A stretch of DNA of 64,000 nt from a virus (Duplodnaviria > Heunggongvirae > Uroviricota > Caudoviricetes), in IMG/VR virus record IMGVR_UViG_3300028832_000001, positions 36,007 through 100,006 of that record. The stretch is one strand, 5' to 3'. Both the position numbers and the translations under genes were made by a program. This document shows, in pieces, positions 28,653 through 54,465 of the stretch (position 1 is the first letter of the stretch; each line of letters opens with the position of its first letter). The notes under the pieces were generated by a model. The model worked only from the letters and a program-made list of their open reading frames with translations, was not told the DNA's origin and did not search any database.

Positions 28653-29465
28653 ATGAAAAATATTAAAGAAATGTTAGATGCCGTAATTGAACCGATCAAG
28701 CTCGGTAGTGATTCCGGTTTTTCTAATTTTTTAACTGAAGAATCAGATTTTGAAGGAACTAGAATCATAACCGAAGAAGATGATCCATTTGGTGGTGCAG
28801 GTGGAGATATGGGTGGTGGTGATGCTGGTGGCGGAGATGCTGGCGGTGATCCATTTGGCGGTGGCGGAGACGCCGGCGGAGCAGGTGGCGGTGCTGACCC
28901 ATTTGGTAACGATATGGGCGGTGGAGCTGGTGGTGGCTCTGATAATGGTGGTAATGGTGGCGGTGCCGAAGGTGGTGCCGAAGGTGAGGACGATGAAGAA
29001 AAAGACCCAGATGAAAATCCGGCTTTAACTGACGGTTCTCATGATCCTGACCCAGAATTCAATCAGGGTGAAACCGATCCAAATGACATAACATTGTCTA
29101 AGAATGCTTCAATTAGCAATAAGTTCAATATCACAGATATTATGAAGACTGTCTCGACAGTTATTCAGACATTGAGTGAAGACCAACTTGTTGAAATTGA
29201 AAAGGTAAAGAATGATGTTGAGTTAATATTTAATGGCTTCTTGCTCAATGAAGAAGATCTTGAATTCGATAATGTAGAAAATGCAATATTCTTAATTGAA
29301 AAGATTGCTGAAAAGTTAGATATTAAGCCAAAGTCTTATTTAATCCGAAAGATGAAAGAACCTTTGATTAAGAAGCGTGATAGTATTAAGCAAGATATTG
29401 CCACTAAGAAGGGTGAACTTAATACGACTCGAGACATTCTTACAAAACTTGATACTAAGATATAA
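28653..29465 (+). CDS. Gly/Asp-rich putative prohead core protein
   Basis: FSNFLTEE and IITEE cleavage-type sites; DPFG-GG repeats; C-terminal coiled coil; TATAAATA at 28590-28597. Confidence 0.55.
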   Translation: MKNIKEMLDAVIEPIKLGSDSGFSNFLTEESDFEGTRIITEEDDPFGGAGGDMGGGDAGGGDAGGDPFGGGGDAGGAGGGADPFGNDMGGGAGGGSDNGGNGGGAEGGAEGEDDEEKDPDENPALTDGSHDPDPEFNQGETDPNDITLSKNASISNKFNITDIMKTVSTVIQTLSEDQLVEIEKVKNDVELIFNGFLLNEEDLEFDNVENAIFLIEKIAEKLDIKPKSYLIRKMKEPLIKKRDSIKQDIATKKGELNTTRDILTKLDTKI

Positions 29466-29496
29466 AAAGAAAACCGGTTTAAAAACCGGTTTTTTA
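29464..29496. terminator. Bidirectional terminator, ACCGGT family copy 1
   Basis: AAAAAGAAAACCGGTTTAAAAACCGGTTTTTT. Confidence 0.8.
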
Positions 29497-29512
29497 TTTT
29501 ATTAAATATTTT

Positions 29513-30028
29513 TTAGTTCAAGTCAAATTCTGGAAGCTCAGACTTTTCACCTTCTGTTTGACCATCGTCTTCCATAACAGGTGATTCTGTCTGTTCTTCA
29601 ACTACTGGTTTTTCCTGAACTGTCTCAACCACCTCTTTCTTCTTTCTTGTTTTCTTAGGCTTATTTTCAACAACCGGAGTTTCTTCAGTTGCTTGTGTTG
29701 TTTCAACATTTGTTTCAGGAACATTTGTAACCTCTACTTTATTTTCTTGTGCTTGTTTTTGTGCCTTCAAATTGGCAATAAATGCTTCATATTCAGCTTC
29801 GAAAGTATCTAATGCTGGAGTTCTACGAGAACTATAACCACCACGACCGTGACGTTCTGGAATAGCAGGTGCTACAGGTTCTGGTAAATCTACGCCAATT
29901 AATTCAGCACGTTGCTTGTCCATTTCAGAGTATTGAGTACCATTATGAATTGAATTATAACGGTCTTTCATACGTGCCTGTAAATCGGCTAAAAAGTTCT
30001 TATTTCTTGTATTGATTTTTCTTCCCAT
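29513..30028 (-). CDS. Hypothetical low-complexity E/T/K protein
   Basis: Start moved to MGRKINTR (30028), preceded by AGGA SD. Confidence 0.65.
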   Translation of the reverse strand: MGRKINTRNKNFLADLQARMKDRYNSIHNGTQYSEMDKQRAELIGVDLPEPVAPAIPERHGRGGYSSRRTPALDTFEAEYEAFIANLKAQKQAQENKVEVTNVPETNVETTQATEETPVVENKPKKTRKKKEVVETVQEKPVVEEQTESPVMEDDGQTEGEKSELPEFDLN

Positions 30029-30032
30029 TTTA

Positions 30033-30413
30033 TTATTCCTTAATATGTAATAACATTGTTTCAGGGACATTATAGACTATATATCCTGGTGGATTAGTTT
30101 TATTTCCCTTAATAATTTTTAGTGTAAATAAATTTATACTATTTATTGGATCTGACTGACCAATTATTTGATAAATACATTCATCGCCATTTACATTACT
30201 TGTAACTTTATCATTTACTTCAAATGGACGATATGTTTCTTCAATTTCTACCCCATTAGTAGATTTTTCAATATTTTCGGAATTTATAGTTTTTGCATTC
30301 TTAACGGCAACAGTAAGATCACGTGCAATCCATTCAGGACAGTTCTTACTACTTACTACTTTTTTAATTCCATTTAATAAAATATTTAGTTGTTCTTTAC
30401 GTATATCTTCCAT
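30033..30413 (-). CDS. Hypothetical protein
   Basis: 126 aa; TAATG overlap. Confidence 0.65.
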   Translation of the reverse strand: MEDIRKEQLNILLNGIKKVVSSKNCPEWIARDLTVAVKNAKTINSENIEKSTNGVEIEETYRPFEVNDKVTSNVNGDECIYQIIGQSDPINSINLFTLKIIKGNKTNPPGYIVYNVPETMLLHIKE

Positions 30414-31000
30414 TAGTCACTACTCAAATTGTCTTCATCTTTAAATAATATCTTTAGAATATGAAGCTCCTTTTTAAACTTCTGTAAACAGTCAGATATT
30501 GTTTTGTCAAAGTCATTAAGATGAGTACTAATTTGTCTTGCGACACGGCCCGCACTAGCAGCTCTGGTTGGCGGATAGTTATATGATTCAAAGCCCTTCA
30601 TGAAATCTGCACTTGGTTTTGATAAATCAGGAAGTTCTTTCTTAAAAATTTTTGCATAAAGTGTCCAACATGCATTTTCGAAACTTTCGATAGTATTAGC
30701 AAGTTCGACGCCTTCACGTAATTTACGTTTTTTCTTCTTTTTCTTCTTTTTCTTTGGAATCTGATTTAACCAATATCCAGGGTGATGAGCATCAGGAACG
30801 CCTTTATAAAGTGGATTAACACTAAATGGAGAGCGTTGATATAATAATCCCATACGTTGAGGACAGCAACCTTTGCAGTCACCGCCATGTGGAATACCTT
30901 GATCAGCACCAAGCGGAGCACCAACACCGATTCCAAAATCCTCGTCTAAAACCTTATATCCGTTTTTCTTAAGAACTTCTACAGCTTCTTCTAAAGTCAT
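30413..31000 (-). CDS. Putative internal head protein carrying a copy of the major capsid N-arm and a poly-Lys tract
   Basis: MTLEEAVEVLKKNGYKVLDE|DFGIGVGAPLGADQGIPHGGDCKG (21/25 identical to gp23 aa 54-78); KKKKKKKKKRKLRE; TATAAATA at 31033-31040. Confidence 0.7.
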   Translation of the reverse strand: MTLEEAVEVLKKNGYKVLDEDFGIGVGAPLGADQGIPHGGDCKGCCPQRMGLLYQRSPFSVNPLYKGVPDAHHPGYWLNQIPKKKKKKKKKRKLREGVELANTIESFENACWTLYAKIFKKELPDLSKPSADFMKGFESYNYPPTRAASAGRVARQISTHLNDFDKTISDCLQKFKKELHILKILFKDEDNLSSD

Positions 31001-31006
31001 AAAAAC

Positions 31007-31501
31007 CTAGCTAATCTTTAAATTATACTTATTATTTATATCAGTTACGTAAGAATTCCATTTATTTCCATGCGCATAGTTCTCTAAATACAGAATTTTA
31101 TTGAATAAATCTGTATTTTCTTTATTATATGCATCAAAAGCTGCAGCGATTTCGCCACCAGTAAGTTCAAGGAATATCTTATAATGTAACATTTCATGAA
31201 GCATTGTTCTTTCTAAAGCTTCATAAGGTCTTTTATGAGTTTTGGAGATTTCAATCCTTGGATTCTTTAAAATTTTATTTTCAAAGTCAATATCAAATTT
31301 GAAATAACCATTGACTTCAGAACTATCGATGATATTGACTGGAATTTTAATCAAAGAATTATCAAAATACATGTTATTACATGCATCAAAAATTTTGCTT
31401 AAATATTTTTCAGTCAATTCAAAATGTTTACTAAAAAGATTCATAATCTCGCCATGATGATTTAAGGAAATCTGTTCTATCCTTTGTAAATGTTTTGCCA
31501 T
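31007..31501 (-). CDS. SprT-like zinc metalloprotease
   Basis: FDACNNMYFDNSL...NGYF...IEIS...TMLHEMLH...HG..W; true start may be Met20 (31444). Confidence 0.75.
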   Translation of the reverse strand: MAKHLQRIEQISLNHHGEIMNLFSKHFELTEKYLSKIFDACNNMYFDNSLIKIPVNIIDSSEVNGYFKFDIDFENKILKNPRIEISKTHKRPYEALERTMLHEMLHYKIFLELTGGEIAAAFDAYNKENTDLFNKILYLENYAHGNKWNSYVTDINNKYNLKIS

Positions 31502-31694
31502 TAACGGTTACAGTTACAGTTCTCGAAGTAGATTCTACAACTTGAACTTTTACTGGACAACATGCTTTTACTTCAGGAATTTTTGTCCAATAATAGTAAC
31601 CATCTACTATATTAAACCCATACTTTTCTTTTTCGCTCTGATATAATCGTTCACATTCTGGACAACGTGGTTTTGGCGGAGGTGGAAAAAACAT
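31431..31694 (-). CDS. Small hypothetical Cys-containing protein
   Basis: 87 aa with CPEC; starts 1 nt after the upstream stop. Confidence 0.55.
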   Translation of the reverse strand: MFFPPPPKPRCPECERLYQSEKEKYGFNIVDGYYYWTKIPEVKACCPVKVQVVESTSRTVTVTVNGKTFTKDRTDFLKSSWRDYESF

Positions 31695-31695
31695 A

Positions 31696-32235
31696 TTAAT
31701 GCTTCCTTAATATAGTGTCTAACTCACTGTTTAACTGTCTGACAACATATTGTTTAGAGATTATCTCGGAATTTAAAAGATAGTTTTGAATTCTCTTATC
31801 TTTATATAAACCTTTAATCCAGTTGACAGAAGATAAACAATACATTTTTGGACGTAACCATTCTCTAAGCTTGAACATTAATAAATCAAGATTAGAAATT
31901 GCGTTATGTTCTTCCTGGGTTTTCGGATTTCTTATCAATTTTCCATTACGGTCAATAAGACCTAATTTATAAGCCTTTGTTGTCGTTGGAATAGTTGTAA
32001 TAGATTTAAGAAAAACAAAAACAAGAACATTATCAATGTCCCTATTATGTGTACTTAGGTTTATTTTCTTATTATGAGTTTTTAAAGAATATAGTGTTTC
32101 ACGTGCTTCTGTTAATATTCCATTTGCTTCAAAATAAGCAGACATGGTTTCGGCATTGTTTACTAAACGCTGTAAACCAGAAACACTATTTTTATCTTCT
32201 AAGGCGTAAAAAAATCTTTCCCAGAGTTTTTCCAT
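31696..32235 (-). CDS. Conserved T4-like-phage hypothetical protein
   Basis: FLKSI..IP....AYKLGLIDRNGKLIR motif; ATG 4 nt after TATAAATA. Confidence 0.65.
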   Translation of the reverse strand: MEKLWERFFYALEDKNSVSGLQRLVNNAETMSAYFEANGILTEARETLYSLKTHNKKINLSTHNRDIDNVLVFVFLKSITTIPTTTKAYKLGLIDRNGKLIRNPKTQEEHNAISNLDLLMFKLREWLRPKMYCLSSVNWIKGLYKDKRIQNYLLNSEIISKQYVVRQLNSELDTILRKH

Positions 32236-32250
32236 ACAATATTTATAGCT

Positions 32251-33111
32251 TTAATGACACCATTCAGTCTCATTGATAGAATTTCCATCATCGATTATTT
32301 CATCACAATTATAATGATATGAACAAGATTCTTGTTTAGGTCTATACATTCTTTGTGTTCCTAAATATGGATCTTGTTGTGTAGAAGATGAAATTTCTGT
32401 TTTAACTTCCATCGGTGTTCCGTCAATATCTGCACCTTGTTTAGTACTTTTTACAGTTTTATGAGTAATCGGGTCAGTTCTGACGTCACCAAAACTTTTC
32501 TTAGATTCTGATTTCAAAAAATTGTTATATTTCTCAGAAATAGAATCTGCAATCTTCTTCATCATACTTCTAATATTTAACATATTATGAAGTTTTGTAT
32601 TTGGGTCATCTTTTAAAGTTCTTTGATGAGCAATCATACATGTAGAATCACTACAGTATTTTTCATAACCTCTAATAACACTTATGAACGTCGTTTCTTT
32701 ATGACATGTTGGACAATATCCTTCATCTTCTTTTCTGACATAAGTATCATAATAGAGTTTTGGATTATAGATATTATGCTCTTTTTTCAAGTGATTATTA
32801 AACTTTTTTGATGCCGCATTAGCAGAATCGGCAGAAATCATCATATCACAGATTTCACACTTTAATTCTGTATATTCTTGTTGTTTTGGCGCTTTATTAC
32901 TACAAGTTGTAGAACAATATTCTGCATAACCTTTATTTAAACCATTATAAGTGGTCGGTTTTCCACAGATTTTACAGATTCCTTCACCTTCTTTCTTAAG
33001 AAACTTGTCATAATACTCTTGCATGCCCAATTTATGGTCATTTTTGATATGAAGAGCAAAAGACATAGCGTCTTCATAGGTTCTTCCACATATTTTACAT
33101 TCGTAACTCAT
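32251..33111 (-). CDS. Tandem zinc-finger protein (2 x [C2H2 + CxxC...YCSxxC])
   Basis: CKICG..H..H, CKICG...YCSTTC, CEICD..H..H, CPTC...YCSDSTC. Confidence 0.75.
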   Translation of the reverse strand: MSYECKICGRTYEDAMSFALHIKNDHKLGMQEYYDKFLKKEGEGICKICGKPTTYNGLNKGYAEYCSTTCSNKAPKQQEYTELKCEICDMMISADSANAASKKFNNHLKKEHNIYNPKLYYDTYVRKEDEGYCPTCHKETTFISVIRGYEKYCSDSTCMIAHQRTLKDDPNTKLHNMLNIRSMMKKIADSISEKYNNFLKSESKKSFGDVRTDPITHKTVKSTKQGADIDGTPMEVKTEISSSTQQDPYLGTQRMYRPKQESCSYHYNCDEIIDDGNSINETEWCH

Positions 33112-39434: not shown

Positions 39435-41057
39435 ATGAATCTTAATTTTTTAAACCCATTTAGCTCTGAATTCTTAAAAACTTCCCCGGAACATAGTGAA
39501 CAACGTGCAATCGAAGCTGCACGTAATTCTTATGGTAAAGGTGAAGATACAATTGACTGGAATGCAATAGCAGGAAGTTACAATAACAATGGTTATGTAG
39601 ATCCAGCAACACCTTATGACCAAAATAATATTGTTTTTGAAACATTATTTACAAATAAATGGCAAAAAATTTCTTGGTATCGTTCTATGGCCATGTACCC
39701 ATTGGTTGGTAAAGGTCTGAATATTATGGCGGACGAAGCAGTTTGTCCAGACGCACTTGGAAATGTTGCAATGTTCGATATTGAGGAACCGTTCAAATCT
39801 AAATTTACTGCAACAGAATTTGCAGCATTGAAGATGGAATTTGACTATATTGTTGACTGTGTTATTGGTAAAGAAAATATTTGGGATTATTATTATAAAT
39901 GGCTTGTTGATGCCGAACTCTTCTGGGAAATTTGTTTAAATGATGCAGGTGATAAAGTTGTTGGTATTAATACTTTAGCACCTTATGCAATGCTCGTAAT
40001 TTATGACAAAGATTCTGATAATATTAATGGTTATATTGAAAACATTAATTATCTCAATCAGGCACAGGATAAGACTTCTGAAATTAAGAAGTTCCTTCCT
40101 AACCAAGTTGCTTATGTCAGATATCCGTTAATTTGGACAAATAGAAATGATATTCGTGGTCATTTGGAACGTTCTATCAGACCATTGAACCAATTAAGAA
40201 ATATTGAAGATGCTTTGACTGTTTATCGTATCACTCGTGCAACTGAACACCGTGTATTTAACATTTATACTGGTAGAATGCCGAGAACTGATGCTGCTGC
40301 TTATGTCCAGGAAATTAGAAATAAGTATCGTAAGAATTTGACTATTGATAATACTACTGGTATGGTCAATGCCGTTAAGAATACTCAAGCAATGACTGAA
40401 GATTTCTTCTTCCAGAAGGATGACTCTGGTAACGGTTCTACAGTTGAAACTTTCGCATCTGGTTCTACTTTTGATGGTCAGCTTCAGGATGTTTGGATGT
40501 TCCAGAAGCAGGTTATGGACGGTATGTTCATTCCTCAGGCAAGATGGAAATCTGATGAAGTTGGTGGTGCTTCTTATAATCCAGGTATTGATCAGGCTAA
40601 CCACGAAGAAGTTTCTTTCCAGAGAGTTAATAGAAGATTAAGAAGAAGATTTGCAGATATTATCAAGCAAGTTTACCTCGTTCACTTGAGAGTTCGTGGT
40701 TATAAGGAAAAATTCCTTGATAAGGCTTTGTATAATATCGATTTACATCCAGCAACAGACTTTGAAAGAATGCGTGACTTGAACCTTGCTGAAAAACGTG
40801 GTTCTGTTATTGGTACTCTTTCTCAGTTCTTACCAACATCTTCTAATATTAAGCCAGGTGCTGAAGAACTTGCTCCAATTTTCTCTAAGCAATTCTTCAT
40901 GGAGAAGATTCTCGGTATGTCTACTCAAGATATTCTCTTGAATAATAAGATGCTTGAATCTGAAATTAAACAGATGAGAGAAGAATCAGAAGCTGCACAG
41001 GCTGAAGGCGGAGAATCTCCAGATGCTGAAGGCGGCGGAAGCGACTTAGGTTTCTAA
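39435..41057 (+). CDS. gp20: Portal protein
   Basis: YRSMAMYP...ADEAV...WLVDAEL...RPLNQLRNIEDALTVYRITRA...EDFFF...VETFASG...F..RLRRRF; TATAAATA at 39393-39400. Confidence 0.95.
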   Translation: MNLNFLNPFSSEFLKTSPEHSEQRAIEAARNSYGKGEDTIDWNAIAGSYNNNGYVDPATPYDQNNIVFETLFTNKWQKISWYRSMAMYPLVGKGLNIMADEAVCPDALGNVAMFDIEEPFKSKFTATEFAALKMEFDYIVDCVIGKENIWDYYYKWLVDAELFWEICLNDAGDKVVGINTLAPYAMLVIYDKDSDNINGYIENINYLNQAQDKTSEIKKFLPNQVAYVRYPLIWTNRNDIRGHLERSIRPLNQLRNIEDALTVYRITRATEHRVFNIYTGRMPRTDAAAYVQEIRNKYRKNLTIDNTTGMVNAVKNTQAMTEDFFFQKDDSGNGSTVETFASGSTFDGQLQDVWMFQKQVMDGMFIPQARWKSDEVGGASYNPGIDQANHEEVSFQRVNRRLRRRFADIIKQVYLVHLRVRGYKEKFLDKALYNIDLHPATDFERMRDLNLAEKRGSVIGTLSQFLPTSSNIKPGAEELAPIFSKQFFMEKILGMSTQDILLNNKMLESEIKQMREESEAAQAEGGESPDAEGGGSDLGF

Positions 41058-41896: not shown

Positions 41897-44800
41897 ATGG
41901 CAAAATATAGTACGCCAGGTATAAGATTTACAGAAATCGATAATACCATCCGTTCAGAAGCTGAACCAGGATTAGGTATCGGTGCGATTGTCATGAAGTC
42001 CAATAAAGGACCTGTTAATCAGCGTGTCGTTACCAGAAATTATAACGAATTTACAGAAATTTTCGGTGAACCAGAGACTTTGACCGACTATGGTCACTTT
42101 GCTGCAGAAAATTATTTTGCAAATTCGACTCAAATGTATGCCGTTCGTGCAACTATGGGTGATGAGCAATACTCTCAAATCCAGTTCACTTATGACGGTG
42201 CACCAGTAACCGCAACGAACAAGTCCAAGGACACATGTAAGTTCGTTTATGTCGATAACCAGAGCGACAATACGCTTAAGCTTTTGTCTCCATTGTCTGC
42301 TGTCACTCAAGTTGACGCTATGACCGCAGGTGGTGACTGGTTAGATAATCCAGATGGTCAATTCGGTTACACACTCAAGCAGCGTGCATATTATGGCACA
42401 TTCTCTGATATTTTGTCAGAAACAGAAGATTTAATCATTTATAAGGGTAAGAATGACGAACACGGTGCTGAATCCTGGGAAGGAAATATCGTTGAAAAAG
42501 GTATTCACGTCATGTACCCATATTCTGTCGATTCTCAGGGTAAAAATCCGTTAATCGAAAATAAACTTTTGTTTACCGCTTCTGCATGGTATAATGAATC
42601 TGCTAATGCAACTCAGTGTGATGTTAGAAAAGTCGGAACTTTGTTCAAGACAACAGTTTCTGTTCCTGCTTCTGCAACTCTTAACAGAAAGCAAGTCAAT
42701 ATTACTTTCTACGGTGAAGAATCTGCAGTTAGTGGCTGGCCAACAAGCGGTGTTGCTTATCAGGATATTTTCACAGATGATAACTTCTTTGGTGATTTCC
42801 CAGGCCCATGGAAAGACGGAACTTCTGGTTATGGTTATGTAGACGCACAGCGTATGGAAATCATGGACTGGGACGATCCAGATATTAAGAAGACTTACTA
42901 TGTTGATAGCGATAATTTCGCAAGTGGCACATCTGGTGTTTCTGGTATCAAATATACAGAATTCTTCAGTGTTGACCCAAGCTATGCAATTATCGGTAAT
43001 CATCCGACAATGGATTTCGATGGTAAGGCTGGTGCTGATGCATTATTCTGCTCTGCAGTTTCTGAAATGTATTTGAATACAGATAAGACTAAGGTTGCAT
43101 ATCTCGGTAATGATGATATTGATAAGCGTTCTCCAAGAGACGTTATCATCGATATGCTCGATGCTTATAGCTGTAACGACATTTCTGATATTAACGAATA
43201 CTTCTACCTCAAGTATTACGATGCAACAACCAAGTCCATCGTTGAAAAGATTATTAAGGAAGATGCAAAGGATTGCTTCGATCCTAAGGGTAAGTATTTC
43301 GACAAGCATGTTGAAAAGTATTTGTTCTGGCTCTATGCTGGTAAGGGCGAAAACAAGCTCACAAAGGCTCCAGTCTATATTGCTGATGAACCAGAATTGG
43401 TAAGCTTGCCAATCGATAACACCTATGTTTACACCGATGGTGAAACTGGTGAAAAGATTATCAGAAATAATATTGTTGCTAACCCATCTTCTTATATCTT
43501 CAACTCTGTTGATAAGACTTATGCAGATGGTTATACTGTTAGAACTGAAGCTGACGATGAACCAGGTAATGGTGACATTGAACAGTACAAGTCTGTCTTC
43601 GATGATCAGCTCGTTATTGCTTCTATTGGTCCTGGTAAGTATGGTGATGATATTGGTATTTCCATCATCACAACTGAATGTTCTGAAATTCCAGCATTAA
43701 ATCATCAGAATGCATTTAACTGGAAGTACAGATATGATGACGAAGACCGTGTTAACAATGATACAACTCCATATAATGAAAATGAAATGGATTTGACTTG
43801 GAAGAAGGTTTTCAGAATTAACGTTTACATCAAGTCTAAGACACAGACCGCAGAAGCTGCTTGGGGCTTTGGTATGGATGCTCTCCTCAAGGATCCTGCA
43901 GAATCTTGGTATGTTTCTACTGACCCGTATGCAAAGGACGGTGAAGGCAACAGTCTTTACGCTCCAACTGTAATTAACGGTCATTCTGATTATATCTACG
44001 TTTCTCGTGCTTCTGTTACTGATGCTGTTAACGGTGTTGGTAAGTATACTCAACCAACCCAGACATTCGCAATTTACGGTTTAACTGGTGGTAAGAATTC
44101 TGAAAAGAATAATATCGCTGAAAAGACCGCAGCATTATCGCTCTATTCTGATAGACGTCGTGCACCATTCGATATTCTCTTTAACGTCGATGCAATCGAT
44201 ACCTTCAATGGTCGTCAGCGTTACAACGCTCACCAGAGAAAGATTGCTCAGATTGCTGCAGCAAGAACTATGGATATTGGTGTTGTTCAGGTTACATCTA
44301 AGTCTGCAAAGACTGCTAAGGCTATGTTATCTGAATCTAAGATGTTCAACTTCAACAAGGGTGATTATGTAGCTGAATACGGTGGTTACGATAAGTATTA
44401 CAATGGTACACTTGCTTCTTGGATTTACTTACCTAAGTCTGTTGCTGGTGCTTGTGCTATGGCTTACTGTGACACATTCTCTTATTCTTGGATGGCACCT
44501 GCTGGTGTTGCTCGTGGAACAATCAACTATACCAACGGTCAGTTGCTCAAGTTGACAGACGACGAAATCGGTCAGCTCTATGACAACAACGTTAACACAA
44601 CACGTGACTGTGGTAACTATGGTGTTGTTCTTTGGGGACAGAAGACTGCTCTCAAGAAGAACAGCTTGCTCAACAGAATCAACGTCCGTCGTTGCTTGAA
44701 CTTTATCGAAAAGCGTCTTGAAAACATGATGACTCCGTACCTCTTCATGCAGAACAGTGTTAACACTCGTGCTTCTGCAAGAAACGACATTGACTCCTTC

Positions 44801-44977
44801 TTACAGAGAGTTAAGTCTGCAGAAGGTATTGACCGTTATCAGGTTAGCGTTACTCAAGACCCAGAAGATCCGACAATCATGAATGTCAATATCATTGTCT
44901 ACCCGACAAGCGCTATCGAATTCATCGATGTTAAGATCATTATTAACCGCTCTACAGTCACTGTTACTGAAGAATAA
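41897..44977 (+). CDS. gp18: Tail sheath protein (enlarged, 1026 aa)
   Basis: TPGIRFTEID...GPVNQ...FGEP; C-terminal WMAPAG..RG...LYDNNVN...WGQKT...RINVRR...PTSAIEFI; TATAAATA at 41826-41833. Confidence 0.95.
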   Translation: MAKYSTPGIRFTEIDNTIRSEAEPGLGIGAIVMKSNKGPVNQRVVTRNYNEFTEIFGEPETLTDYGHFAAENYFANSTQMYAVRATMGDEQYSQIQFTYDGAPVTATNKSKDTCKFVYVDNQSDNTLKLLSPLSAVTQVDAMTAGGDWLDNPDGQFGYTLKQRAYYGTFSDILSETEDLIIYKGKNDEHGAESWEGNIVEKGIHVMYPYSVDSQGKNPLIENKLLFTASAWYNESANATQCDVRKVGTLFKTTVSVPASATLNRKQVNITFYGEESAVSGWPTSGVAYQDIFTDDNFFGDFPGPWKDGTSGYGYVDAQRMEIMDWDDPDIKKTYYVDSDNFASGTSGVSGIKYTEFFSVDPSYAIIGNHPTMDFDGKAGADALFCSAVSEMYLNTDKTKVAYLGNDDIDKRSPRDVIIDMLDAYSCNDISDINEYFYLKYYDATTKSIVEKIIKEDAKDCFDPKGKYFDKHVEKYLFWLYAGKGENKLTKAPVYIADEPELVSLPIDNTYVYTDGETGEKIIRNNIVANPSSYIFNSVDKTYADGYTVRTEADDEPGNGDIEQYKSVFDDQLVIASIGPGKYGDDIGISIITTECSEIPALNHQNAFNWKYRYDDEDRVNNDTTPYNENEMDLTWKKVFRINVYIKSKTQTAEAAWGFGMDALLKDPAESWYVSTDPYAKDGEGNSLYAPTVINGHSDYIYVSRASVTDAVNGVGKYTQPTQTFAIYGLTGGKNSEKNNIAEKTAALSLYSDRRRAPFDILFNVDAIDTFNGRQRYNAHQRKIAQIAAARTMDIGVVQVTSKSAKTAKAMLSESKMFNFNKGDYVAEYGGYDKYYNGTLASWIYLPKSVAGACAMAYCDTFSYSWMAPAGVARGTINYTNGQLLKLTDDEIGQLYDNNVNTTRDCGNYGVVLWGQKTALKKNSLLNRINVRRCLNFIEKRLENMMTPYLFMQNSVNTRASARNDIDSFLQRVKSAEGIDRYQVSVTQDPEDPTIMNVNIIVYPTSAIEFIDVKIIINRSTVTVTEE

Positions 44978-48651: not shown

Positions 48652-48924
48652 ATGAAAGATATTAATGAAGGTTTTTTTAAAGATAAATATCAGAGATATA
48701 AAGCAGCAGTTATTAGTATTTTAAAGTCTCGTGGTATTAATGCTTTGGCATTAGGACATTATTTAGACGCATATTGTAGAGATTTTTTTGCAGATAACAT
48801 GTCTGCTGACGATTGTGCTACATCTATTGCAGAAAATAGACTTGCAAAAGAGAAAGCAATGGTTGCAGAAGCAATGCGAATTATGCGTGAACATGGGTAT
48901 AGGGTAAAGCCATACAAGAAATAA
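48652..48924 (+). CDS. Small protein with EAxxI...GY motif
   Basis: MKDINE|G start; C-terminal EAMRIMREHGYRV; AAGGAG SD. Confidence 0.65.
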   Translation: MKDINEGFFKDKYQRYKAAVISILKSRGINALALGHYLDAYCRDFFADNMSADDCATSIAENRLAKEKAMVAEAMRIMREHGYRVKPYKK

Positions 48925-49061: not shown

Positions 49062-50039
49062 ATGGATAAAATTCTTGAAACCCTTTCCCAAAAATTCTCA
49101 GCAGAAGAATTGAATGAGGTCAAAAAGGCTATTGAATTCACTGTTGATGAAAAGGTAAAGGCAAAGTCTGAACAAGAAGCCAAGATGATTGCCAAGAAAG
49201 CTGATGAATTTTGTCAGAAGAAGATTAAGGAAGCTGTTGAAAAGAAGACTGCCGAAATCGAAGAAATTGCTAACAAGTTCTGCGAAGAACGTTGTGAAAA
49301 GTTGAGCAAGGAAGCCGATGCAAAGGTTGAATCTTATAAGAAGAAACTCGAAGAAGCTTCAGAACAGTATATCCTTGAATATTTCGATGAGAAGTTCACA
49401 GAAAAGTACGGGCAAGAACTCGAAGCTATCGAAGAAAAAGTTATTACAGGCTTGGATAAGTATCTTGAATATAACATCAATGAAAAGATTGGTCCGGAAA
49501 TGATTCAGAAGACTGCATTGCAAGAAACCTGTCAGCCGATTGTTGAAGAGTTCATTCACATTCTTGAAGACAGATATGTTGCACCTAACACCACTGGTTC
49601 TAAGAGAATCCGCGAATTGAAGGCAGAAAATGCTGAAGTCCGTGCATCTCTCCAGAAGCAGCTCGATGAAAACATGCGTCTCGCTGAATTGGTCGAAAGC
49701 ACTGGTAAGAAGTCTTTGATTTCTGAAAAGGTTGCTGACCTCTCTGCAGATCAACGTCTCAAGGTTCGTAAGTTCTTCAAGGAAAAGAGCTTGAATGAAA
49801 CTAAGAAGGATATTGATGCTTATATCGAAATGATCCAAGAACAAGCTGACTCTATCAACGCTATGCGTTATGAAAGAGAACAATTGTTTGAAAGTCATGA
49901 AAAGCCGGTTCGCAAGTCTCGCTATGTCGAAGACCGCACGAACGAAACTATCACTGAAAAGTTTAAACCAAAACGCCGTGAATTGAGCGCTCGCGAACGC
50001 ATGATGCTTGGTTCCGCTAACCTAATTGATGAAAATTAA
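49062..50039 (+). CDS. gp22: Prohead core scaffold protein
   Basis: LSQKFS...IEFTVDEKVK...LDKYLEY; coiled coil; directly upstream of gp23; TATAAATA at 49011-49018. Confidence 0.85.
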   Translation: MDKILETLSQKFSAEELNEVKKAIEFTVDEKVKAKSEQEAKMIAKKADEFCQKKIKEAVEKKTAEIEEIANKFCEERCEKLSKEADAKVESYKKKLEEASEQYILEYFDEKFTEKYGQELEAIEEKVITGLDKYLEYNINEKIGPEMIQKTALQETCQPIVEEFIHILEDRYVAPNTTGSKRIRELKAENAEVRASLQKQLDENMRLAELVESTGKKSLISEKVADLSADQRLKVRKFFKEKSLNETKKDIDAYIEMIQEQADSINAMRYEREQLFESHEKPVRKSRYVEDRTNETITEKFKPKRRELSARERMMLGSANLIDEN

Positions 50040-50126: not shown

Positions 50127-51446
50127 ATGAAGATTACAAAGACACAAGCCGGTATGATGGAACGCTGGGGCAAGGCTCCAGGCGGACTTTCAGTCGCTGG
50201 CATTAAGGACAATCTTGTCCGTTATAATACTGCACGTCTTTTGGAAAACCAGCAGACTAAGAACCTCGGTTCTGAACTCTTGACTGAAGATTTTACTCAG
50301 GGCGTAGGTGCTCCACTTGGTCTTGACCAGGGTATTCCACACGGTGGTGACGCAAAGGGTGTTTTCGCACCGATTTCTTTGGCACTTGTCCGTCGTGTTT
50401 TCCCACAGCTTTTCGCTAACGTCCTCGTTGGTGTTCAGCCATTGACTGGTCCTGTCGGTCTTGCTTTCGCACTCCGTTACATTTATAAGACCAATAACCC
50501 GAACGAACTCGTTGAAGCCGCATGGAAGGCAGTTCCTCGCTTCTCTGGTTATACCGGTTCTACCGCTAACACAGATGGCGAATGGGATGCTGGTACTGGT
50601 GTTGATACTCAGTCTGCTGAAGGCTGGAAGATCACTGGTCCGACCTTCGGTTCTGATGACCCGTCTGTAAGCCGTAAGATGCCAGAACTTGGTCTTATGC
50701 TCAGCCGTCAGTCTATCGTTGCTAAGACCCGTAAGCTCGCTGCTAGCTTCTCTCTCGAATCTGCAGCTGATATCAAGGCTATGCAGGGTATCGAAATGAT
50801 GACTGAAATGATCAACGTTCTCCAGCAGGAAATGACTGCAGAAATGGACCGTGAAACAATCGGCCGCTGCAAGAGCCTCTGTACTCCACGTGTTTACAAC
50901 AAGGCTGATCAGACCCTCGCTAACAACGATTCCTTCATTGGTACAAACTCTCAGGAACGTTTCGGTCTCATCATCACTCACATCATGAAGGGTGTTAACG
51001 ACATTCGTACCGCTACTCGTCGTGGTGCTGCTAACATTGCAGTCGTCTCCCCAGACGTTGCTACTGTTCTTCAGGTTGCTAACCCATGGTTCACCAAGGT
51101 TGCTCATGAAGTTAACGGTTCTGCAGTTACTCCGGAAATGGGTACTCTTAACGGTGTTGTTAAGGTCTTCTGTGACCAGTATGCTGTTGACGAATTCGGT
51201 GCAAACGACAACGGTGAAGTTCTCTTAGCATTCAAGGGCTCTAGCCTCTATGATGCAGGTGTTATCTTCTGCCCATACGTTACCGGTGTTGTCAATCAGG
51301 CTATCGATCCTAACGACTTCTCTCCAAGAGTCGGTATCATGAGCCGTTATGGTTTCGCACACAACATGCTTGGTGCTGAAAACTATTATCGCTTGCTCAA
51401 GTTCAACGGACTCTTCGCAGACGCTCCAGAGTCTCTCGTTTGGTAA
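50127..51446 (+). CDS. gp23: Major capsid protein
   Basis: LLENQ...LTE|D...LVRRVFPQLFA...GVQPLTGPVGLAFALR...KTRKLAASFSLESAADIKA...FCPY...P.VGIMSRY; TATAAATA at 50069-50076. Confidence 0.97.
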   Translation: MKITKTQAGMMERWGKAPGGLSVAGIKDNLVRYNTARLLENQQTKNLGSELLTEDFTQGVGAPLGLDQGIPHGGDAKGVFAPISLALVRRVFPQLFANVLVGVQPLTGPVGLAFALRYIYKTNNPNELVEAAWKAVPRFSGYTGSTANTDGEWDAGTGVDTQSAEGWKITGPTFGSDDPSVSRKMPELGLMLSRQSIVAKTRKLAASFSLESAADIKAMQGIEMMTEMINVLQQEMTAEMDRETIGRCKSLCTPRVYNKADQTLANNDSFIGTNSQERFGLIITHIMKGVNDIRTATRRGAANIAVVSPDVATVLQVANPWFTKVAHEVNGSAVTPEMGTLNGVVKVFCDQYAVDEFGANDNGEVLLAFKGSSLYDAGVIFCPYVTGVVNQAIDPNDFSPRVGIMSRYGFAHNMLGAENYYRLLKFNGLFADAPESLVW

Positions 51447-51520: not shown

Positions 51521-52147
51521 ATGAGATTTAAGGATTTTTACAATTTAAACGAAAGCATTTATGCAAATGTTTCTAAGCTTAAAAAACTATTTAATCTTGC
51601 ATTAGATGGCGGAAACTTAGATGATTATCTTAGGGTTGATAGATATGCACCAGAAGAATTAATACTTATTTCACCTATGATTTTAGATGAAATAACAGAA
51701 GAAGAAGTTATAAAGATTTGTGATTCTGCTGGTTTCTATTGTAGTATTCATCACAATGATAAAGGAAAACCTCTTCCTTTTGACCCTATCTATATTACAC
51801 CAAAGAACCAAAAAGAACCGCTAAACATTGGCGCACAAGAATATTATCATTGTTCGTTAGCTGCAAATTTAGATAAATCTGGTTTACGTTTAAAATCAAG
51901 AAAGGTTGATAATGATTATGATGTATATGATGATAGAATTTATCTAGTTCCTGTTGCATTAGCTGGCGATCCAAATGAAATAATAGACATGGTTGCATCA
52001 GAACATAATTGCGATAAATCTGAAGTTTATGTTTATAAAGTAACTTTACCTAAAGGATATGAAGTCTATCAAGACCCAACTAAGCGTGAAGCAGTATATG
52101 TAACTAATGCAATTCCACCTAAATACATTACAAAAATAAATTTGTAA
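51521..52147 (+). CDS. ADP-ribosyltransferase-fold (Tpt1/KptA-like) protein with capsid-targeting N-terminus
   Basis: MRFKDFYNLNE; YYHCS...SGL...RIYL...YKVTL...YQDP...VYVTNAIPPKYI. Confidence 0.55.
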   Translation: MRFKDFYNLNESIYANVSKLKKLFNLALDGGNLDDYLRVDRYAPEELILISPMILDEITEEEVIKICDSAGFYCSIHHNDKGKPLPFDPIYITPKNQKEPLNIGAQEYYHCSLAANLDKSGLRLKSRKVDNDYDVYDDRIYLVPVALAGDPNEIIDMVASEHNCDKSEVYVYKVTLPKGYEVYQDPTKREAVYVTNAIPPKYITKINL

Positions 52148-53041: not shown

Positions 53042-53695
53042 TTATCGTCTATTTCTATGATAAGCAGACTGTCTAGTACCTGCTGCTAAGTCCATGTTAG
53101 AACCACCGAACATAGCGCCTTGTAATACAAAAAGAACTGCAGTTGAATTTTTTGCAGCTTGAATTCTGGCACTTAATGTCTTGTAATACTTATCACCAGT
53201 TACTTCGCGAGCCTTTTCAAGAAATTCTGCCTTTGCAACATCAAGACCGACTTCATCAGCAAGCTTTGTAAAGTAACCGTCTTTAATATAATCTGCACAA
53301 AGTTGAGAAAGCGGAGTTCCTTCAGCAGTTCCGAAACCTTCATCTAATGTCATAGTTTCGTCTAAAGTCATGCCTTCTAAGTCGAGGTCATCTTCTAAAG
53401 CTTCGTCAACTTTGTCTTTCTTCTTTGCCCAGAAAGGAACAAAATCGGATTTCTTACCTTTCTTCTTACCTTTCTTTTTCTTGCCACCACAACCGCAGCA
53501 ACCTTCATCAAGTTCATCATCGTCTTCAATTTCTTCGTCTTCACGAATTAATTGATAACCTGCTTCTTCGGCAATACGCTTTGCCTCTTCGAGCTCTTCA
53601 CGAGCAACACGTTGACGGAAAGATTCGCCTTCTGAATTCTTGACGACGTGATAACCTTTACCTTCTACAATTTTTTTAGCTTCTAAAAATGTCAT
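53042..53695 (-). CDS. Putative internal protein with two EAxxI...GY motifs and a K/C-rich patch
   Basis: LEAKKIVEGKGY, EEAKRIAEEAGY, LDE|GCCGCGGKKKKGKKK, repeated LDE sites; two TATAAATA upstream. Confidence 0.65.
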   Translation of the reverse strand: MTFLEAKKIVEGKGYHVVKNSEGESFRQRVAREELEEAKRIAEEAGYQLIREDEEIEDDDELDEGCCGCGGKKKKGKKKGKKSDFVPFWAKKKDKVDEALEDDLDLEGMTLDETMTLDEGFGTAEGTPLSQLCADYIKDGYFTKLADEVGLDVAKAEFLEKAREVTGDKYYKTLSARIQAAKNSTAVLFVLQGAMFGGSNMDLAAGTRQSAYHRNRR

Positions 53696-53799: not shown

Positions 53800-54465
53800 A
53801 TGGAAGCTAAAAAGTTATTAAATGAAGCTGCTATTGCCGAATCAAAGATTCTTAATGAAGAAACTAACGGCGTAAAGCACATGTATATTTCTGGTCCTTT
53901 CCTTCAGGCTGTAGATACTAACAGAAACGGGCGTATCTATTCTAGGGAAATTATTGAAAGAGAAGTTAATAAGTTCCAGGGTCTTATTGAATCTCGTGAA
54001 GCTGTTGGTGAACTTTCTCACCCAGAATCAATCGAAATTAACCCAGACCGTGCAGCAATCTTGATTACTGAATTAAAGATGGATGGTAATCTTGCAATCG
54101 GTAAGGCTAAGGTTCTTACTACCCCATGTGGAAAGATTCTCGAATCTCTTTTGAATGATGGCGTTCGTATGGGTGTTTCCTCTCGTGGAACTGGTAACTT
54201 GACTGAAGGTAACATGGTTGCAGATGACTATTCTCTTGCAACAATCGATGCGGTTTATATGCCATCTGCTCAGGTTGCTTATGCTGATGCAATGTATGAA
54301 TCTGTCCAATATGCATCTAAGTGGGTTCTTAATGAAGCAACTGGTCTCTATATTGAAAAGAGAGAAAAGGTTGACGAAGCTACTAAGGCATTCAATAAGA
54401 AGGTTGACGATATTGGTTCTAAGATTATCGTTGAAGCCTTTAAGGATTGGTTAAAGGCAATCTAA
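53800..54465 (+). CDS. gp21: Prohead protease
   Basis: YISGPFLQA...NRNGRIY...GELSHP...GKAKVL.TPCG...GVSSRGTG...D.V..PS; TATAAATA at 53765-53772. Confidence 0.95.
   Translation: MEAKKLLNEAAIAESKILNEETNGVKHMYISGPFLQAVDTNRNGRIYSREIIEREVNKFQGLIESREAVGELSHPESIEINPDRAAILITELKMDGNLAIGKAKVLTTPCGKILESLLNDGVRMGVSSRGTGNLTEGNMVADDYSLATIDAVYMPSAQVAYADAMYESVQYASKWVLNEATGLYIEKREKVDEATKAFNKKVDDIGSKIIVEAFKDWLKAI

Follow-up and report, generated by a model that had tools for sequence, protein, structure and literature searches.

Assembly of the T4 head is one of the best-studied pathways, and yet T4 carries a small gene, 61.1, which copies the cleavage site and the N-fist of its own major capsid protein (MCP) and has no assigned role. 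The T4 protease gp21 cuts after L/I-x-E (PMC9026906). In the cleaved but unexpanded head, residues 66-105 of the MCP, gp23, are disordered and lie in the interior, where contact with the scaffold core is probable; upon expansion they come to lie on the outside of the shell, folded as an arm and a 25-residue N-fist, and the N-fist binds a pair of subunits in its own capsomer and another pair in the adjacent one (PMC9546572, PMC9958956). After expansion the segment 66-104 binds, in all, four neighbouring subunits, and the N-terminus of gp24* reaches a neighbouring hexamer (PMC9546572, PMC9958956). The head-length mutations A66D, A94V and G97S map to the same N-terminal region of gp23 (PMC9546572). 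Sequences that target proteins to the capsid have been described for the T4 internal proteins IPI, IPII, IPIII and Alt (Mullaney and Black 1996, summarised in PMC9026906).

The product of gene 61.1 (NP_049649.1, 54 aa) has a leader that ends in I-K-E, and it is identical to T4 gp23 residues 57-93, a stretch that spans the cut site, at 17 of 37 positions (E 6e-9). It is annotated as hypothetical, with no published function and, in the papers searched, only two mentions in passing. It matches two profiles, phrog_1823 (3e-33) and positions 108-154 of phrog_2086 (1e-15), and its relatives are found in 1,433 GenBank phage records, where some have been named automatically 'major capsid protein'. In a long form, such as the 159-aa protein WJJ54698.1 of Acinetobacter phage AB1I1M-1 (phrog_2086), a further N-terminal domain and the gp61.1 part are joined in one chain.

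Here we analyse a gene of a rumen phage in which the same design is seen plainly: a near-exact copy of the capsid N-terminus, two predicted cut sites and a Lys tail, present once per genome and changing with the MCP.

The phage and its head genes

The window, that is, the whole stretch of 64,000 nucleotides analysed here, corresponds to bases 36007-100006 of the complete 415,750-bp genome of a T4-like phage (about 416 kb), which has direct terminal repeats. Sequencing runs with matching DNA come from the gut of cattle, sheep and goats. The phage has no cultured relative; the nearest MCP of a GenBank phage is 33.5% identical to its own.

The head genes are of T4 type. They include the portal gene (39435-41057) and, on the plus strand, the genes for a gp22-type scaffold protein (49062-50039; Pfam T4_CASP, E 5e-7), the MCP (P0002, 50127-51446; Pfam Gp23, E 5.5e-69; PHROG 'major head protein') and a gp21-type prohead serine protease (53800-54465; Pfam Peptidase_S77, E 2.8e-28); the sheath gene (41897-44977) is of T4 type as well. 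The MCP is predicted to be cut after L52-T-E54 (50280-50288, plus strand), and the first 39 residues of the mature protein are then encoded by 50289-50405. A search of the genome for a full-length gp24-like paralogue, which would be the vertex protein, found none. The window contains 39 copies of the T4 late-promoter consensus, TATAAATA, and 36 of these lie no more than 80 nt ahead of the start codon (ATG) of an ORF of at least 80 aa, where 1.9 would be expected for random places. The genes for the MCP, scaffold, portal and protease each have the box ahead of them.

Anatomy of the predicted precursor

ORF 30413-31000 (minus strand, as are all its parts below) encodes a precursor of 195 aa, P0001. 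Its own TATAAATA box of T4 late type stands at 31033-31040, 32 nt before the ATG at 31000, and its ribosome-binding site looks weaker than that of the MCP gene. Residues 1-20 (30941-31000) form a leader ending in L18-D-E20, the first predicted cut site. This leader follows the pattern M-x-L-x-E-A ... N-G-Y ... L/I-x-E, a tag that opens 22 ORFs of the genome. Residues 21-45 (30866-30940) copy the mature N-terminus of the MCP, the equivalent of the T4 N-fist, and fall mostly in columns that are invariant among 28 homologues, while residues 46-58 (30827-30865) show a weaker likeness to the MCP N-arm (MCP residues 80-93), including an R-M-G that is almost invariant across the modules described below. 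Next come a conserved Pro/His/aromatic linker ending in Q-I-P (residues 59-82, 30755-30826; invariant at N62, P63, G67, V68, A71, H72, H73, P74, Y76, W77, L78, Q80 and P82), a run of nine Lys, an Arg and a Lys (residues 83-93, 30722-30754), and L94-R-E96 (30713-30721), the second predicted cut site. The rest of the protein (residues 97-195, 30416-30712) is a variable four-helix domain, with AlphaFold2 pLDDT mostly above 90. The predicted peptide D21-E96 would have 76 residues, a mass of 8.4 kDa, a pI of 10 and a net charge of +11.

The preliminary description, made from the sequence of the window, had pointed out a near-perfect likeness to the MCP, and the comparison bears this out. P0001 residues 20-44 (30943-30869) and MCP residues 54-78 (50286-50360) are identical at 21 of 25 positions, each stretch being preceded by an L-x-E site, and the nine-Lys tract followed by a K-L-R-E site is also as described (nine Lys plus R-K-L-R-E, residues 83-96). 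BLASTP extends the match to residues 11-58 of P0001 and 45-93 of the MCP (27 of 49 identical, E 4e-13). At the DNA level the two copies have diverged, again as had been noted: in the stretch scanned, 9 of the 20 codons for the same amino acid differ. Other pairs of module and MCP on single contigs (n=7) differ at 8-15 of about 20 codons for shared residues. These differences indicate that the identity is kept at the protein level and does not come from recent gene conversion. In the 415,750-bp genome P0001 and the MCP hold the only two copies of this N-terminus. A chance match or a relic of recent recombination is ruled out by the BLASTP E-value, the codon divergence and the invariant columns.

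With the L-T-E site and the V-R-R-x-x-P motif as anchors, no gap is needed to align MCP residues 55-93 with T4 gp23 residues 66-104. P0001 does not match PF07068, the HK97-fold domain of Gp23, and its likeness to the MCP stops at residue 58. Judged by this alignment, the module is a copy of the mobile element of the MCP, ending where the fixed body of the capsid protein starts.

The alignment of 28 homologues of P0001 has 39 invariant columns, of which 38 lie within residues 20-84 (E20 to K84) and the remaining one is E96; where the alignment has a residue two positions before E96, that residue is L, V or I. Residues 97-195 are poorly conserved, and unrelated domains take their place in relatives. 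Contigs from RNA libraries of two studies span the gene (30416-31065 and 30213-31085); these are contigs of relatives, and DNA carry-over is possible, so that they do not prove transcription. The variant places listed inside the module in these contigs are all at third codon positions (12 of 12). As read from these sequence comparisons, the mimic is under strong purifying selection. In the Lys tract AAA and AAG codons alternate, the longest run of A being 6 here and 3-7 across 19 modules. This would fit avoidance of slippery runs, but is only suggestive.

AlphaFold2, run with the 28 homologues, predicts a helix for the tag (residues 3-12), disorder for residues 19-66 (pLDDT below 50) and a confident four-helix domain at residues 94-193. 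The predicted disorder of the module alone is what would be expected if the arm folds on binding. A fold search with the C-terminal domain returned generic helical bundles only (best Z 7.8), with no informative match. Neither Pfam, PHROGs nor NCBIfam has a family for P0001, and neither tblastn of P0001 nor megablast of 29000-33000 finds a match in GenBank phages.

Another late ORF, 53042-53695 (minus strand, 217 aa), lies divergently to the protease gene and encodes a tandem pair of tags, a stretch of acidic residues, and a cluster of Cys and Gly that passes into a Lys-rich tract (C-C-G-C-G-G-K-K-K-K-G-K-K-K); from its sequence it looks like another processed basic head protein. The likeness of its 'T-L-D-E / G-F-G' to the start of the module is faint and not significant (E 0.01).

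A module conserved in relatives

Word-based and exhaustive profile searches gathered 91 related proteins. The set found with the module profile comprises 80 cluster representatives at 50% identity, from 40 to 602 residues long, about 10 of which are whole or partial MCPs. The other clusters, about 70, share one module, consisting of x-x-Glu, a copy of the mature MCP N-terminus, a variable linker and a basic tract. The proteins are otherwise unrelated and carry it N-terminally, internally or at their extreme C-terminus; wherever it stands, its first residue follows x-x-Glu. The preliminary description had named a lack of conservation in relatives beforehand as one result that could refute it; the conservation across these clusters speaks for the claim. 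One module gene, besides the MCP gene, is present in each of four genomes that are complete or nearly so (416, 424, 248 and 243 kb).

We analysed whether copies and capsid proteins vary together, comparing 28 residues in four lineages for which both genes lie on one contig. Within this clade few parts of the MCP are as well conserved as its N-terminus, which leaves little variation for such tracking. Nevertheless, MCP and module have lineage-marking residues in common: P-L-G-L-D-Q and K-G in the lineage of this phage, P-T-G-A-D-Q and K-A in the second, K-A in the third, and S-M, T-G-L-N-Q and G-G-P-G-K-G in the fourth, which includes two genomes of about 245 kb. For each module lineage its own MCP is the best or joint-best match, and the true pairing of modules and MCPs ranks 1 of 24 permutations, the lowest rank possible for four lineages. 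The co-variation that had been proposed as a check is thus found in part: in lineages A-C the residue after G-G-D never matches, being Cys or Gly in the modules and Ala or Ser in the MCP. The module of P0001 is slightly nearer to the common form of the MCP than to its own MCP, which has derived T-Q and L residues. Taken together with the diverged synonymous sites, the tracking argues for a shared constraint, or for an old conversion followed by selection, and against recent copying.

Outside these four pairings the records are less informative. One sample has both modules with the signature 'G-I-P-Y-G-G-D-G-K' and MCPs that bear it, a hint only, and none of the contigs examined contains the two genes together. 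Two modules of the G-G-P-G-K-G lineage have no MCP within 10 kb. MCP P0166 had been taken to lie on the contig of locus L023, but a direct search showed otherwise. Several MCP-bearing fragments (records that are 16-37% complete, and short ones) yielded no module; being incomplete, they say nothing on its absence.

The proteins that carry the module differ in what surrounds it. In the 245-kb lineage a mixed-charge Lys-rich stretch stands in place of the pure basic tract (L216, L220 in G022). In L216 (record G021, 136090-136281) this stretch continues into an internal copy of the tag helix that ends in I-R-E, and from this arrangement the tag may have a second use, joining the units of a polyprotein through a cleavable linker. 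In P0051 the domain behind the module is homologous to the C-terminal half of ORF 51521-52147 (E 4e-8), and in P0045 the N-terminal domain that carries the module is homologous to ORF 48652-48924 (E 7e-10). The first of these ORFs (plus strand, 208 aa, of no known family) directly follows the MCP gene. The second (plus strand, 90 aa) has its own late promoter box and a tag-like helix end without a cut site, and lies directly before the scaffold gene, the position where T4 has genes 67 and 68.

Comparison with T4 gene 61.1 and other systems

It had been suggested that nothing equivalent to this gene had been described. That does not hold: T4 gene 61.1 is an equivalent with the same layout, though an unstudied one. 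Like P0001, T4 gp61.1 has a leader ending in hydrophobic-x-Glu, followed by a copy of the N-terminus of the phage's own capsid protein and then by Q-I-P and Lys (Q-I-P-K-K-K-K in T4, nine Lys in P0001). P0001 differs in that its copy is closer to its own MCP (21/25 against 17/37), and in having a conserved linker of 24 residues, a longer Lys tract, a second predicted cut site and a further domain. Its gene has a late promoter box of its own, unlike T4 61.1, which lies among replication genes (early or middle genes) with no TATAAATA box before it.

Beyond Q-I-P-K-K-K, no profile or BLAST link joins P0001 to gp61.1: P0001, its residues 1-100 and three other module proteins match neither phrog_1823 nor phrog_2086. 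This is to be expected if the copies follow capsid proteins that have diverged to about 30% identity. A link is seen in the neighbouring gene. The ORF at 31696-32235 (minus strand, 179 aa), which lies upstream of the module gene in 40 loci across lineages, is helical, matches positions 5-66 of phrog_2086 and is similar to the N-terminal domain of the gp61.1 long form of the Acinetobacter phage (BLASTP E 2e-9). By these matches the 179-aa ORF is the free form of that domain. It found nothing among GenBank phages by tblastn, and its model has no PDB match at E 0.001 or better. By layout and linkage P0001 is likely the counterpart, among rumen jumbo phages, of T4 gp61.1, although by profile it is not a member of the family. 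Seen in this way, P0001 is a striking variant of an annotated, uncharacterised family that reaches T4, one with a polylysine tail and a predicted cut site at either end of the peptide.

As judged from its sequence, P0001 also resembles the T4 internal proteins, which have a short N-terminal propeptide (10-20 residues) ending in L/I-x-E, are loaded with the prohead core, lose the propeptide to gp21 and leave basic products that stay with the DNA. The internal proteins, however, have no copy of the capsid protein; and in P0001 it is the peptide, not the tag, that is conserved, and cuts are predicted at both of its ends. By the gap-free alignment the N-fist and N-arm of gp23* (residues 66-105) are a parallel to the copy itself, but the N-termini of gp23* and gp24* are parts of shell subunits, whereas the P0001 peptide would be detached, with no capsid fold behind it. 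In adenovirus the basic, DNA-associated core precursors pVI and pVII are trimmed by the virion protease, and their cleaved N-terminal peptides sit in a pocket inside the major capsid protein. Adenovirus is of an unrelated lineage and fold, and its peptides copy no segment of a capsid protein.

Possible function of the peptide

The best reading, given the tag, the two protease-type sites, the late box, the presence of a protease gene, the fusion partners and the pattern of selection, is a processed prohead peptide, and we consider it probable that the product of P0001 is a protease-processed, head-associated peptide. As an overall explanation we favour a late polyprotein precursor that is cut to give a capsid-mimic peptide docking as a free-standing fist; this we put forward tentatively, as just short of evenly balanced. 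We infer cleavage, packaging, docking partner and the role of the tail as follows. The late precursor would consist of a 20-residue head-targeting tag, cut site 1, the 76-residue peptide D21-E96 ending at cut site 2, and a 99-residue helical domain, and would most likely enter the prohead with the scaffold core. The gp21-type protease would cut it after L18-D-E20 and L94-R-E96, as it would cut the MCP after L52-T-E54. The freed peptide would then have the same new N-terminus as the mature MCP, nearly the same first 25 residues and a weaker likeness over the next 13, and could dock, as a free-standing fist, on the surface that partners the MCP's own N-terminus, while its polylysine tail would attach to DNA or to an acidic surface. 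This docking mechanism is possible, though we would sooner bet against it than for it. A complex prediction with two mature MCP chains and the peptide D21-E96 gave a score of 0.00 and returned no verdict.

Several observations weigh against the explanation that we favour. In T4 the N-fist ends on the outer surface after expansion (PMC9546572, PMC9958956), so that a peptide whose fist sat outside while its tail held the DNA would have to thread the shell. The preliminary interpretation finds support in that the mimic is real, has protease-type flanks, is conserved and follows the MCP; apart from its claim of novelty, the point to correct is the tethering of DNA by poly-Lys, which in a simple form, at the inner surface, would need an extra assumption given the outside position of the T4 N-fist (PMC9546572, PMC9958956). 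In a closed lattice, moreover, every fist site is served by a capsid subunit, except perhaps near the vertices, and since no gp24-like vertex protein was found, a vacancy at the vertices cannot be argued. The inexactness of the copy at the residue after G-G-D (lineages A-C) also counts against this explanation, as do the replacement of the pure basic tract in one lineage, and the position of T4 61.1 among replication genes, its lack of a late box and the failure of P0001 to match a gp61.1 profile.

The alternative that survives best is that the copy imitates the part of the MCP that touches the scaffold core, and serves only to load a basic peptide and its fused domain into the prohead; the peptide would later be a free internal peptide that coats the DNA or is co-injected with it, and would not bind the shell. 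The interior position of the gp23 N-terminal region before expansion, its probable contact with the core and the head-length mutations that map there (PMC9546572) all favour such a handle, as do the flanking domains, which vary like cargo, the fusion, in relatives, of the module to a homologue of the 90-aa ORF that precedes the scaffold gene, and the net charge of +11. On the other hand, a dedicated 20-residue tag is already present on 22 ORFs, and P0001 has this tag plus the copy. The start of the module always coincides with the cut site, suggesting that the free N-terminus is important once cleavage has taken place, and the strict conservation over residues 20-84 seems more than loading would need. 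We consider loading alone rather unlikely.

A more far-reaching reading is a detached rivet that acts in trans on the capsid. T4-like phages, from T4 to the 400-kb rumen phages, would make a detached copy of the N-fist that is released by the protease and used in expansion, locking into those fist sites that subunits cannot fill (around vertices or the portal); its arm would pass through the shell, and its basic tail would hold the outermost DNA. In this specific form the idea is distinctly unlikely; if true, it would describe a kind of head component not described so far. More generally, if the peptide is a component of the head, published inventories and structures of the T4 head miss a part, one that would be relevant to the completion of expansion, of shell stabilisation or of DNA anchoring. 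As T4 carries a counterpart, the question is accessible in T4 by ordinary genetics, mass spectrometry and cryo-EM.

It is also conceivable that the precursor or the peptide acts as a regulator, competing with the MCP for the protease or for the arm-docking sites and so timing cleavage or expansion, or affecting head size, while being absent from the finished particle. The likeness covers residues before the cut too, both in P0001 and in T4 gp61.1; two small core proteins of T4, gp67 and gp68, are said to take part in determining head size (PMC9026906); and the ribosome-binding site, weaker by its looks than that of the MCP, would suit a protein of this kind. A decoy, however, needs neither the conserved linker nor the basic tail, and the protease seems not to need the copied residues, because other tagged proteins have unrelated residues after their cut sites. 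We regard a regulator of this kind as quite improbable. Hardly credible is a decoy for host immunity, in which the copy would imitate a capsid epitope sensed by a host defence and block or mislead the sensor: Lit protease senses the Gol peptide of T4 gp23 and CapRel senses the capsid protein, and the mimicry itself and the place of T4 61.1 among early or middle genes would agree with such a role, but it gives no part to the two flanking cut sites, the head-targeting tag, the late promoter box or the polylysine tail, and the hosts of the family range from Escherichia to uncultured rumen bacteria.

Neighbouring genes

The module gene lies in a cassette of minus-strand ORFs. Besides the 179-aa ORF, its second member is an 87-aa Cys-containing ORF (31431-31694), found in 37 loci. 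An SprT-like ORF with an HExxH motif (31007-31501; Pfam SprT-like, E 5.5e-5, which is below the curated cut-off) lies directly upstream of the module gene, and precedes it in 24 loci of the long-linker lineages. That a gene resembling a DNA-dependent protease adjoins a gene for a polylysine peptide is curious. On the downstream side, the stop codon of the module gene overlaps the start of the next ORF (TAATG), and the two ORFs that follow, 30033-30413 and 29513-30070 (both on the minus strand), overlap each other as well; the first of them (126 aa) is conserved in 22 loci. From these overlaps the module gene and the two downstream ORFs look like a translationally coupled operon. In other lineages (L099, 10403-10879; L226) the module gene adjoins a gene for a gp2-like DNA end protector (phrog_429, E 1.8e-13) and is also downstream of ClpP-like, eIF-1a-like and Cpn10-like genes.
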